64,000 nt of DNA from Opitutales bacterium (GTDB taxonomy: Bacteria > Verrucomicrobiota > Verrucomicrobiia > Opitutales > PNEW01): assembly GCA_965197745.1 (NCBI GenBank), contig CBDANS010000006.1, positions 576,001 through 640,000 on the forward strand, in the 5' to 3' direction. The position numbers are program-made. Within the stretch, counting starts at the first letter, position 1, and the number at the start of each line of letters is the position of its first letter. Positions 1 to 64,000 of the stretch are shown in pieces.

Positions 1-3000
1 AGCAAAGGATCCCCGGAACGCAACTTGGCCCGAACTGAAGTGGTCCCTGAGTACGGCAAGCACCGCATTTCCGAATTGCCGGATGGTCATCATTACGGTG
101 CCAACGTCATGCCTCAGTGGAGGGACTTGTCAGGGTCCACTTCAGCGCTTTGTTTTCTGTGTTTCATTTTTTCGTTCTCTAAGATTGACAACTTCAACAG
201 CACTTTGGCAATTGGCGAATGCCCATATTCGAGGGTCTGCAAAAACTGATTGGGACTGACAAGCTTGCGATGAGCTATCTCGTATTTCTGAGTAAACGGC
301 TGGACACGTACCCTGCATGAATACCGCATCTGATAATGGACTGAATCATCTTGAAGGTCTCGAACATGCTGCCAACCCATTAGAGAGTGTTTGATTACTT
401 CGCAGCAGGATTCCTCCAAAATCTCGCGCTTGAGCGCATCGTCGAGCGATTCGTCATTTTCCGGGTGTCCCCCGGGTATGTTCCATGTTTTGCCATCCGA
501 ACTGATCATTACGATTTGATCATCAGGAGTAAAACAGACGGCACTTACCTGGGTTGTTTGAGCACGCGGCGGTAAATTCTTTCCGCACTCCCATGTCACT
601 TCAAAGCGCCGCCCTTCAAATTCCGTCTGATCCCTAAGTATCATTTTTTTCCCCAGCGAAAATCAGATTATCCATCTGGTTTTTAGCGATTAGCTGTATG
701 AGCTTTATCGATGATATCGGTATAAACATCTGTTTTGCCATAGGTATATGACTTTCTGTCATCTGAAAATTTACTCGCTAATTCACACTTCACATCTGCG
801 TATTTCATTCTCATCACTGGGTTATTGCACAAGAAATCTCTGAATAAGAGGTAATCGCGCCATTGTGGATCCGCCTCGGTTACCATGTGAATATGGGAAT
901 GGACGATATTGTATTGGACCCAAATGAAAAGGTGCCCTCCAGCGATCCCCTTGTCACCTCGATATTCATAACCCGCATTTGTCATACTGTCGATGTTTGC
1001 ACTGATATCGTTTTTCTTTGAAACAACAACAAGAATATCGACGATGGGCTTCGGCGGAAGTTCAGGAATAGAGGTACTGCCGATATGCTCAAATCGAATG
1101 AACCTGCCGTTGAGCGCCTCTGAGATTTTTATTTTCTCTTTCTCATAAAACTTGGCCCATACTTCGTGGTCAGTCCTCAATTCAACGGTACCATGTTGTA
1201 ATCCTGTCATAGACATAAAAAAAGGAACTTTTTTATATATATATTTATATTAAATACTGTTTAGTATCGGGATTAAGCACTCCAGGGAATCTATTTCATA
1301 ATCAGGTTCGATAGTGCCCCTACTTCTGACAGAATCACGATTGAGCAACACCGATAGTATACCGCTGTCCTTAGCTCCTTTAATATCTGATTCAAGTGAA
1401 TCCCCTATATGCATTAGCTCATCGGGATTACACGCTGCTTTTTCTAGAGCAATATCGAACAGCCTTCGATCAGGTTTTTCTACCCCGTGATCCTGTGAAA
1501 AAATGACAAAACTGAAATAGCCCTCAAGACCACATCGGTCGGGGTAGTTGTTCCCGTTTGATAATAATCCAATTTTGTAACTACCGGCTAATGCATCTAA
1601 TGCCGTAATAACATCTTCATATAATTCTATGTCTTCAAATCTGTGTTTTAAATAAATCTCATTAAGTTCATGTGCTAATTCATCATTCTTTACACCGAAA
1701 AATTTCAATATCCGTTGAAATGCTTTGTAACGAACATCCTCAAGATTGATGATACGCCCTTTATATTCTTGTGCCACTTCATTTCGTATTTGGATCATTT
1801 TCTCTATGCTCAACAGAGCCGACTGTTCCCTCGTTACATGATCTTTAAGTTCGATAAGGACATGTTGCAAAGAATGTCTCATGACTTTTTCAAAATCCCA
1901 GAGCGTGCCATCACCATCGAAGGATAGTGCTTTGATTTGTGTGACTATTGGTCGATTAAGCATCTGATTCGTTTTACAACAGCGTGGTTAACACCGCATT
2001 TTGAGCATGAAGAAGAGTCTGCCTCCCTTTTGACTGACACCTAAACGTCGAGTATCTCCCGAGTTGTCTCGTAGCCGCCTGCGACATGAGCTGCAAGCCA
2101 GTCCGGACTGTCTCGCCGCGGTAGCGACAGCGCCGGTTCGCCCTTACAGCTCAAGCGGTAGAGTAGCCGGGCATCGTCAATCGAGCTGATTTTGAACTTG
2201 ATTGGCGGCGAGTTGTGCAGAGTCATGAAATTGTCCCAGATCGTCACGTCGCCCGGTGTGTGCACATGGTCGTAGCGGAATTGTGGCTGGAGCACGTGCG
2301 CTTCCAGGCGATCGAGAAAAGCGCGTGATTGCTCTATCGTCATCCCGTCTACCTCGATCGCCGGCCGTACCCCTGGCCGCGAAGCCCAGATCGGACTGTG
2401 TAAAGACTTTATCCCCGAACGCGGGTTGGTGCGCACCAAGGGCGCGAGCCACCCTTCATCTCCCTCGTTTAACCGTCGCCGCAGTTGAACGCGTTCCAGT
2501 GCAGTCTGCTCATCAGCCGGTAAAGCCTCAAAAGCAGCCGCCGTATCGGCATAGGGTGTCTCACCGTTTAAGGGCATATTCTTGCGCAGCTGCATCAACC
2601 TGACGTCAGAGTCCTCGTAATACGGTTTAGGGTCGCTGCTCGGTTCCTGTATCCAGTATCCTCCAGGGGCGTCGCGCGTGAGGGGCACATGGTGGACGAG
2701 AAACATGGACACGTATATCGGCAACAACTCGTACTCGATATCCGTATGCCAGGCGCCACCGGTTGACACGCGGGTATCCCCCTTCTCCCCCTTTTCCCGC
2801 TTCTCGTTGAAATTAGACACGACAAGCACCGTCGGCGACTCATGCGGCAGGCACTGCAACTGGTCAGGGAAAATCCTGTCGACGGCGGCCACCCTCCGCT
2901 TCTCGTAGGGGACAAACTCGATCGGTCCGTCGCTGGCCCCGTCATCTTGCGCCAGCTTGCCCCCACGCATGAAATTGTTCGGGTGCGGAATCGGCGCGCC

Positions 3001-63000: not shown

Positions 63001-64000
63001 TCCGAGTTGCTGATTTTCAAGATCGTAGTTATAGAGTGACAAAACATTATGATTGCGGTTTGTCGCAACGTAGAGGGTTTTACCGCCATATTCAAAAGCG
63101 ACAGGATCCAAATCTGGTGGTAAGGGTAATTTGTCCCATGGAAGATCTTCATTTTTTCGATAAATATATGTTTCATTACCCTCATTAAATGACCTCTTCT
63201 TATAACCAACTCCCATCCTCAAAAATCCTTCTGGATCGCACATCCATGCATCCACATAACCGGGATTTTCTTCTTTGATAGGATAGTAACCACTGCCTGG
63301 AGCCATGGGGCCATGCTGGCGTGCATCTCTCAAGTAATTCATTTGGTGGACATGTGGTTTATGAAATCTCTCGGAAAAAAACTGAATGAGTATTTTATTA
63401 GGTAGGTCGTCTTGCAGGTCTATAACCGATGCATAGTTTTCAATATCAACCAGGGTTCTTATTGGTTTTCCAATGCGATTAACGGAATACAACCCGTAAT
63501 AATACTGGCCCCACTTTGTGACATTAAAAATTAAATTATCGTTATCAGCCCAATAAAACTGCCGAATATGGAGGCCCATCCCTGTTCTTATACCAATAAT
63601 CTTTTTCGTATTCAGATTAAGTGTAAATAACTCATAACTGTCATTTATATAACCAATATATCCGACGTGCTCCCCGTCAGGAGAAAGAGATGCATTTGAG
63701 AAAAGTGTTGCTCTAAAAAAGTTTTCAATCGGCTCGGGTTCTGCTTCGAGGAAAGATATACTGAAAAATACTAAGCCCGAAACGATTACTTTGATCCCAA
63801 AAGTTGCGACTTTAATCATTCTGACTCCCCCAATCTTTTGTTTATACTTAACAAATTCCCAGCGTTTTAGCGGCACATAAAAATATACAATATCTAATAC
63901 TCACTCGATTGTTATCTCTTCCACCGTAACGGTTAATTCCTCACCATCGGCGTTTACAAATGTGGCGACGATGCTTTGCGTTGGTTGTGCCGTTAGGTCA

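Follow-up and report, generated by a model that had tools for sequence, protein, structure and literature searches.

Probable attC-stripped integron cassettes in a one-way gene row of an Opitutales bacterium

Sedentary chromosomal integrons, or superintegrons, are described as long one-way rows of short unrelated genes (PMC5371416; for Xanthomonas, bioRxiv 10.1101/2025.06.18.660453). Leading-strand orientation is reported for 25 of 30 of them (PMC5371416), and acetyltransferases are reported to be common in their arrays (PMC8618304). Cassette-type genes that carry attC sites and have no integron integrase nearby are known as CALINs or SALINs, and in that literature insertion at secondary sites by IntI acting in trans is a published route (PMC4889954; bioRxiv 10.1101/2022.09.11.507474). 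Additive flexible genomic islands of Alteromonas are a different kind of system: their content and order vary between relatives, they often lie at tRNA genes, and some of their units are near-identical across species (PMC4898812).

The window analysed here is a stretch of 64,000 nucleotides (64 kb) on contig C6 of an Opitutales genome (G000, 92% complete). It resembles a superintegron in being a one-way row of short unrelated genes on the leading strand. In contrast to a superintegron, the window has neither intI nor attI and no homogeneous attC family; attC does not follow nearly every gene (among 61 gene ends there are two near-complete sites and four partial ones); operons and IS elements are interleaved; and related rows occupy several loci on both replichores. 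The CALIN definition (at least two attC within ~4 kb, intI absent nearby) describes C7:36-42 kb and C7:49-52 kb of the same genome. The window itself is not a CALIN, since 59 kb separate its near-complete attC sites and some nine-tenths of its genes show no attC trace. It looks like a later, attC-stripped stage, of which no description was found in the literature searched; the supplements of PMC4889954 and PMC5371416 may list verrucomicrobial arrays. As in flexible islands, content and order vary between relatives and some units are near-identical across species; unlike them, the row is built of individual short genes that share a direction and have mostly diverged between genera as far as core genes have, and it carries no integrase and has its nearest tRNA gene 61 kb away (flanking genes: tRNA-Leu at C6:514.7 kb, tRNA-Lys at 764 kb). 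The same families, one-way layout and short spacers recur in a Bacillus run (L263) that has no attC match, and PMC4889954 describes Bacillota as having no complete integrons.

Genes were called with a basic in-house caller, by which some genes are missed or truncated; on these calls, the minus strand carries 73 of 84 genes of C6:570.8-639.8 kb and 60 of 73 of C7:35-107 kb, in agreement with the 73 of 82 and 60 of 70 of the first-pass annotation. Within the window, the minus strand holds 68 of 80 hand-picked ORFs and every one of the 40 with a Pfam match to cassette-type enzyme families (nine GNAT, eight HAD, five methyltransferase, four APH, four glyoxalase, four small P-loop kinase, two NUDIX, two GrpB, one HIT and one AAC(3)). 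The annotated agreement in strand also extends to C7, where 26 of 27 such ORFs share one strand. Spacers are short, as had been claimed (median 34 nt; 26 of 40 below 55 nt, with pairs more than 400 nt apart left out). Two other elements of that annotation do not hold. Rather than uniform 70-kb arrays, the window contains three IS elements, a blaI/blaR-TonB pair and a phosphonatase operon, which supplies three of the eight HADs and is an ordinary operon despite its co-orientation; C7:57-80 kb consists largely of enolase-superfamily and ABC-transport genes. Mixed G+C is likewise no hallmark, the standard deviation being 0.041 for 36 array genes and 0.044 for 2059 size-matched genes. The window has no Rfam match, and a generic promoter/terminator scan of 21.9-41.8 kb gave no signal (34 promoter and 17 terminator sites, with 44.6 and 16.8 expected). 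The features are listed in the table.

Table. Features of the window, in order of position.
Positions	Strand	Feature	Remark
99..158	-	Near-complete decayed attC, overlaps end of NUDIX gene (114-644)	16.9 bits, E=0.042
114..4214	-	One-way block: NUDIX, GrpB, HAD, TauD, short-chain dehydrogenase	
4303..4413	-	Gene-front repeat P1, copy 1 of 2 in window (11 in genome)	Promoter-like hexamers and short hairpin
4617..7177	+	BlaI repressor and BlaR1/TonB-C gene pair	Not cassette-like
7247..8563	+	IS3-family element, broken	
10567..14395	-	One-way block: NUDIX, glyoxalase, HAD, esterase, membrane protein	Long spacers with hairpin repeats
14425..19461	-	Phosphonatase (PhnX) operon, two further HADs, aldolase, Zn dehydrogenase	TIGR01422 above cut-off
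19471..19547	-	Gene-front repeat P2, copy 1 of 3 in window (8 in genome)	Reversed control: none
21971..43555	-	Core run, 29 consecutive same-strand genes: GNAT, methyltransferase, APH, HAD, HIT, AAC(3)-like, GrpB, kinases	
27995..28028	-	attC left-arm remnant, 3' of HAD gene	6.5 bits; by eye resembles L154/L158 left arms
35907..36377	-	GNAT without attC in window	2 of 6 closest relatives outside family are attC cassettes
36811..36840	-	attC left-arm remnant, read through as last codons of methyltransferase	12.1 bits
37547..37629	-	Gene-front repeat P2, copy 2	
38538..39062	-	GNAT without attC in window	Nearest relative in metagenomes (59%): a cassette of an attC array
45443..49347	-	One-way block: two small kinases, APH, split kinase, GNAT, unknown	
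46509..46593	-	Gene-front repeat P2, copy 3	G001 and G002 carry an extra gene directly behind the same repeat
48207..48240	-	attC left-arm remnant at GNAT stop codon	12.9 bits (first matrix), 6.2 bits (later matrix)
49440..50789	-	IS3-family element, broken	
51419..53008	+	IS4-family element	
53021..61768	-	One-way block: APH, GNAT, DNA-alkylation repair, two methyltransferases, two glyoxalases, HAD, PhyH	Three split
55098..55129	-	attC left-arm remnant after GNAT	8.7 bits
59545..59607	-	Near-complete decayed attC, between gene 59610-60128 and glyoxalase	Right arm 17.2 bits; 7.9 bits with another scoring
60128..60240	-	Gene-front repeat P1, copy 2	Directly 5' of attC-ended gene

The one-way form alone proves nothing, because the Bacillus region has a like run without attC. 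An earlier comparison of the strand share with a 99th percentile of 0.83 is circular, as the array windows themselves make up the top 1%. When same-strand runs are shuffled, 73 of 84 or more is reached on C6 in 80 of 500 shuffles; with the four long array and ribosomal runs removed, this falls to 1 of 500; the C7 share of 60/73 is reached in 423 of 500 and, without those four runs, in 120 of 500. By these counts the bias is exceptional on C6, as had been proposed, and ordinary on C7. The core run of the window is the second-longest same-strand run of the genome, the longest (46 genes) being a ribosomal cluster. A candidate third array, C5:336-426 kb, was rejected as a ribosomal cluster that is collinear in the sister genomes; used as a negative control, it gave three attC-model matches (best E=0.27).

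The shared direction does not track replication. Plus-strand share per 100 kb is mostly 0.4-0.65, which indicates a weak leading-strand bias in this genome. With replichores inferred from skew and orthologs, the C6 row lies on the leading strand, and the C7 row and three rows of the sister-genus genome G001 appear lagging. The G001 plus strand holds all 29 orthologs of C6 minus-strand genes and all 18 of C7, distributed over six loci, half of which are lagging; since orthologs in one direction occur on both leading and lagging loci, co-orientation is independent of replication. Bacillota have a strong leading-strand gene bias. Given the weak bias here and rows on both replichores, a replication explanation of the Bacillus type is not transferable to this genome.

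The attC traces of the window all lie on the gene strand. The site at 99..158, whose left arm scores 11.3 bits, is the sole covariance-model match in the 64 kb; the site at 59545..59607 is not matched by the model. Folding of the two is weak or out of register (-3.8 kcal/mol for the former, which is weak, and -8.0 kcal/mol for the latter), suggesting that both are probably inactive. Among the left-arm remnants, 48207..48240 is missing from the G001 and G002 orthologs, and the G001 ortholog has, by eye, a decayed attC-like site at the position matching 55098..55129. Tails of ~60%-identical relatives of the methyltransferase that ends in the 36811..36840 remnant look attC-derived. At a 6-bit threshold, left arms stand at 6 of 61 window gene ends against a background of 143 of 3589 (p=0.037); p is 0.18 at 4 bits, 0.066 at 8 and 0.22 at 10, a rank test gives p=0.20, and a first matrix found 4 of 82 gene ends (p=0.13). 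The remnants are at most borderline above background. The concern that most C6 spacers hold no recognisable attC is thereby borne out, and the roughly ten attC remnants of the first-pass annotation are found in C7:26-57 kb (10 minus-strand model matches) and not in the window (one model match, one right-arm site, four left arms). The model gave three matches in the C6 flanks and C6:1115-1155 kb (best E=0.89), and effectively none in the G001 array (two in 100 kb, E 2.9 and 4.7). A hand-made attC rule applied to all gene ends proved too blunt (23 sense, 19 antisense candidates), and the broken intI loci of G040 and G024 yielded no attC training set.

No IntI above the TIGR02249 cut-off occurs in the four genomes of the family, consistent with the earlier claim; of 37 further genomes from the order, 4 have IntI. 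Neither profile nor tblastn searches detected an intI remnant: seven IntI proteins returned XerC/D-like genes and weak phage-type matches only, and the five scanned of 12 non-Xer tyrosine recombinases of G000 are phage-type without exception, none scoring above 41 bits (cut-off 265). An attI-like module has 21 copies in the family, six of them in C7:26-82 kb (C7:26-57 kb and C7:81-82 kb), and none in the window (best E=0.53), although attI sites are not generally recognisable, so that an unrelated attI could escape. Neither the module (best E=2.4) nor P1 matches the IntI loci. From their sequence, P1 and P2 would be local promoters.

Relatives outside the family point to a cassette origin for some of the genes. 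With 29 of 80 metagenome loci scanned with the attC model, close attC-cassette relatives were found for two of seven window genes tested, a count taken on window genes alone. For GNAT 35907 these are L154 (45%) and L158 (42%), the other four of its six closest relatives not being cassettes; for GNAT 38538 it is L167, with six attC-model matches in 5.5 kb. The remaining five genes gave no such relative: GNAT 36414 has two at 50-51%, both without attC; in none of the 9 loci scanned of 14 related to GrpB 41556 is attC adjacent; APH 46593 has none in 300 genomes of the phylum and a best outside relative at 31-32%; relatives of GNAT 48239 occur within the family only; and the best match of AAC(3)-like 39602 sits in the Bacillus run. 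Compared with 103 kb of cassette DNA from 34 IntI loci, 0 of 82 array proteins match.

Young cassettes are found elsewhere in the genome. Two C7 groups of four attC sites each, at 36.1-41.7 kb and 49.1-52.4 kb, have E values of 8e-5 to 2.2 (own model, not that of IntegronFinder). The GTT of an attC at C7:26305 is the end of homology to G002 (97% identity), and a variant attC end at C7:2051812 is the end of homology to both G001 and G002; among the matches listed (identity at least 86%), no window breakpoint falls at G|TT. Cassettes that retain attC are 87-98% identical across genera. The median match to the sister genus is 91% for DNA before intact attC (10 of 22 stretches matched), 80% for window genes (38 of 72) and 80% genome-wide (595 genes; p=4e-4). 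The C6 and C7 regions differ in age and are not to be treated as one kind.

Comparison with the sister genus drew on ~0.8 Mb from G001 and ~0.5 Mb from G002, partly chosen by matches, so ortholog counts are lower bounds. The sister array reported earlier exists, at C1 262-322 kb of G001 rather than in G002, whose copy is at C2:915-945 kb; G002:C1/C2 255-335 kb does not hold it. Gene neighbours are kept between genera in 18 of 65 array pairs and in 163 of 183 pairs elsewhere, at similar ortholog identity (77.8% for 51 array, 79.5% for 295 other orthologs; p=0.57). These data support gene-level reordering between the two genera with one direction kept. They do not support the further claim that reshuffling is ongoing: gene order is conserved in part from one genus to the other (11 of 17 genes, p=1e-4), the G001 and G002 arrays, both of the sister genus, are collinear, and window order recurs in conspecific samples. 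Ends of G001-G002 indels, judged by eye, are start or stop codons, start-codon microhomology, a P2 fragment or IS3, and not attC.

Taken in aggregate, these data make it probable that the window is an old part of accessory islands, stocked at least partly with integron cassettes that aged in place and then became fixed one-way rows. Cassette ancestry of part of the genes, attC loss and absence of IntI are supported; the earlier notion of fossil cassette arrays survives to that extent and is not supported for most genes. The best reading is neither one decayed superintegron nor an active shuffler. The proposed history would begin with IntI-type recombination, which brings cassettes in and fixes their direction, as seen in young cassettes on C7, where homology ends at G|TT; since no enzyme was found, IntI was presumably supplied by an ancestor or in trans. 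Promoterless genes facing a local transcript would then be kept. In the next step attC sites disappear by deletion or decay, with a left arm or read-through tail remaining in some cases, and spacers fall below attC length, as seen in the window, with P1 and P2 likely giving local promoters. Rows are reordered and genes moved between islands after the split of the genera, as the comparison shows; present change would be mainly whole-gene loss and IS3-linked moves, as seen between G001 and G002. The window would then be a store of spare small-molecule-modifying enzymes in which recombination is over.

The genome seems to hold both ends of this process, young cassettes with attC still in place and old, attC-less ones that have diverged as far as core genes, and post-capture cassette fate is therefore testable in one lineage. 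A tentative and rather unlikely extension is a family pipeline without its own integrase: ongoing capture in trans at multiplied attI-like promoters, stripping of attC, and compaction into operon-like rows like the window. If so, most row genes would be ex-cassettes, and attC-invisible one-way GNAT/HAD/kinase islands of other bacteria could be the same end stage; attC-less cassettes escape integron surveys because these count attC sites.

If few genes are ex-cassettes, the window is an ordinary accessory island. This alternative, unlikely but with real weight, holds that genes arrived by many routes at tRNA-linked hot spots, that transcript-facing ones were kept, a few cassettes having landed among them, that IS elements, repeats and deletion did the reordering, and that most genes have no integron past of their own. 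It would accommodate the whole operons and IS elements in the window, the tRNA-Asp and phage-type integrase at the start of the C7 region, indel ends away from attC, the weak attC enrichment, and the Bacillus stretch near the best AAC(3) match, where 24 listed genes (among them three GNATs, glyoxalase, NUDIX, DinB and alkylation repair) run one way. It fits less well with weak leading-strand bias and rows on both replichores, with six attC traces and two genes with cassette relatives in one window, and with the clear attC cluster among the same gene families in C7.

Descent from one large sedentary integron that lost intI and broke up, leaving C6, C7 and the sister arrays as pieces, is very improbable, and the earlier label of superintegrons minus the integrase is not sustained. 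The leading-strand position of the C6 row, IntI elsewhere in the order and the partly kept gene order are what it would predict. Opposed to it are the lack of any intI remnant, surviving attC sites that differ among themselves, the absence of any toxin-antitoxin family among the 80 window ORFs, orthologs scattered over five or more G001 loci on the two replichores, and intact attC as a mark of young, recently shared cassettes rather than old ones.

An active non-integron system that shuffles genes today with P1 or P2 as joints is scarcely credible: both repeats are oriented with the genes in the window and the gene content immediately after P2 is different at 46509 and G001:266 kb, but only five P1/P2 copies stand among ~60 junctions, these are diverged and promoter-like, the window holds no recombinase, G001 and G002 are collinear, and conspecific contigs of up to 8760 and 11318 bases (four runs, two studies) keep the window order.

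The window is probably the aged remains of integron cassette arrays, a reading held with moderate confidence. It lies on contig C6 of the studied Opitutales genome (G000; 4.45 Mb in seven contigs), which was compared with G001 (one contig), G002 (two contigs) and G003 (82% complete), family members that all belong to another genus. The one-way runs proposed by the first-pass annotation are recovered with our own gene calls: 73/84 genes at C6:570.8-639.8 kb and 60/73 at C7:35-107 kb lie on the minus strand. When same-strand runs were shuffled, 80 of 500 shuffles came up to the C6 value, or 1 of 500 without four long array and ribosomal runs; the corresponding counts for C7 are 423 and 120 of 500. 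Each of the 40 window ORFs from the named small-enzyme families is encoded on the minus strand, in line with the co-orientation claimed for cassette-type genes, as are 26/27 such ORFs on C7. Spacers are short, as had been described (median 34 nt; <55 nt in 26/40). Mixed G+C, proposed as a further mark of the arrays, is not distinctive, its spread not exceeding that of size-matched genes. The window is a mosaic, the row being broken by three IS elements, a blaI/blaR-TonB pair and a phosphonatase operon.

R', R'' and G|TT are labels of attC, which recombines as a bottom strand. A covariance model was trained on 40 attC sites adjoining IntI genes of other genomes; loci retrieved with the IntI of a same-order genome were mostly from Opitutales and other Verrucomicrobiota. 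On 80 IntI loci it gave 172 hits, 171 on the cassette strand. The window yields a single hit. Left arms occur at 6/61 window gene ends versus 143/3589, which gives p=0.037 at one threshold out of four; of these six, one sits in a neighbouring gene and is probably false; the first-matrix count is 4/82 (p=0.13). As a set, attC enrichment of the window is only borderline. On C7 the signal is clear: left arms at 9/63 gene ends (p=0.001) and 15 model hits at 20-120 kb, 13 on the gene strand. The "about ten attC remnants" reported for the arrays thus describe C7, where 10 of those 13 fall within 26-57 kb, but not the window. In the G001 array region, the covariance model found no attC. Among the candidates scored (150 at most per genome), at least 10, 6 and 12 sites occur in G000, G001 and G002, and none in G003. 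An ordinary island holding a few cassettes is a possible but less likely alternative.

The outside relatives of seven window genes were examined in their DNA context. The GNAT gene at 35907 has six relatives outside the family (39-45%), two of them bounded by attC sites. A 59% relative of the GNAT gene at 38538 sits in an attC array; its next 28 relative loci (<=39%) carry none. No attC-flanked relative was found for the other five. With such relatives for 2/7 genes, a cassette origin is likely for some window genes and no more than possible for most. Several ~60% relatives of an eighth gene, methyltransferase 36811, end in tails that, as proteins, resemble attC read-through and may derive from attC. 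In the plasmid collection, the AAC(3)-like gene has its best match within a one-way Bacillus run: 24 genes from similar families, and zero attC hits.

A broken superintegron is improbable. As the first-pass annotation stated, IntI is missing: no protein in the four family genomes passes the TIGR02249 cut-off, which is passed in 4/37 other genomes of the order, with pieces in two more. The superintegron identity it proposed is not supported, the window having failed the superintegron tests; it also failed the CALIN test, which parts of C7 passed. Of the 14 tyrosine-recombinase matches in G000, two are XerC/D-like and 12 are not, with several adjoining tRNA genes. None is within the window, and the five non-Xer enzymes scanned are all phage-type.

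The family's young cassettes show integron-type capture, the enzyme for which is missing. Among the matches listed, the end points of young-cassette homology are an attC GTT (C7:26305), a variant attC end (C7:2051812) and the terminal GTT of an attI-like module with 21 copies (C7:2047085). Ahead of the 22 best attC sites, the DNA is a median 91% identical to the sister genus where matched (10/22); window genes are at 80% (38/72 matched), like the genome at large. Of the 21 copies of this module, the C7 region has six. The window has none of them but holds 2 of 11 copies of gene-front repeat P1 and 3 of 8 of P2. Their hexamers suggest that both are promoters.

Neighbouring G001 orthologs that touch the arrays lie within three genes in G000 in 18/65 pairs, versus 163/183 in 20 evenly spaced background stretches; the remaining targeted loci give 46/70. 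The proposed gene-by-gene reshuffling between genera agrees with this loss of neighbours, but is only partial, because 11/17 genes common to the G001 row keep their order (p=1e-4). Ortholog identity in the arrays (77.8%) is the same as elsewhere (79.5%); most likely, then, the common ancestor of both genera already had these genes. Orthologs of window genes are spread over five G001 loci on both replichores and always face as the local row does, so replication bias is excluded as the reason for the shared direction. Array-gene orthologs are on one strand at all six G001:C1 loci, across both replichores (~1 in 32 by chance). Between G001 and G002 the row is collinear and differs by whole genes. 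Inspected by eye, the junctions coincide with start or stop codons, one start-codon microhomology, a P2 fragment or an IS3 element, and none with attC. That the window is an active repeat-based shuffler is very unlikely.

The gene order of 28-48 kb recurs on near-identical contigs in four public runs from two studies, so the region is not an assembly artefact; these contigs reach 8760 and 11318 bases, none covering the whole interval. Two low-depth joints are arranged as in G001 and probably derive from relatives.

Under the cassette-remnant reading, the window would be an aged product of capture that kept gene direction. Its attC sites would mostly have gone and its spacers been compacted, with gene order frozen within the species. 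Since the genera split, old genes have moved between islands, perhaps through IntI before site decay or perhaps through IS elements or repeats at a later time; either route would fit. In the literature searched, with few subscription papers, neither attC-stripped one-way islands nor arrays of this family are described.

A stop or frameshift interrupts several window genes, and the G001 orthologs of four are intact. Public run X4 is one base shorter at 29148; strain variation or assembly error may therefore account for some of the breaks.

Positions of features (window coordinates unless a contig or locus is named)
Feature	Position	Remark
Core run	21971-43555	29 genes, one strand; only the ribosomal cluster is longer in the genome
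attC, model hit	99-158	
attC, second near-complete	59545-59607	right arm
attC left arms scoring	27995-28028, 36811-36840, 48207-48240, 55098-55129	
Array-gene orthologs, G001:C1	254-312, 1056, 1160, 2900, 3774-3804, 4385-4402 kb	plus strand
AAC(3)-family acetyltransferase	39602-40426	163 bits vs 270, under every NCBIfam cut-off; closest plasmid-collection relatives Bacillus, Deinococcus, Streptomyces (40-45%)
Bacillus run	L263:3869-24943	record labelled plasmid yet 5.5 Mb long; one-way small-enzyme genes without attC
Phage-type tyrosine recombinase, 416-418 aa	G000:C7:164.7, 944.8, 1065.0, 1087.5 kb; C4:135.3 kb	five copies, 82-90% DNA identity, some adjoining tRNA genes
Split genes	28722-29445, 34942-35500, 47619-48153, 53978-55079, 55130-55877, 60294-60992, 61846-63876	stop or frameshift
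Nested REP-like hairpin repeats	10113-10474, 11456-12016, 15371-15936, 19684-20437, 21656-21972, 55900-56200	in the few long spacers
Phosphonatase operon	14425-19461	PhnX (over cut-off), two further HADs, class II aldolase, Zn dehydrogenase; only phnX matches G001 and G002 (88-90% DNA identity)
Ig-domain gene	8612-10012	final 1.1 kb repeated at dozens of G001/G002 places (76-80% identity)
Tandem run of ~16-21 paralogous ~280 aa genes (L031-L036 region)	G001:C1:1040-1054 kb; G000:C6:1479-1498 kb	one direction, common to both genera
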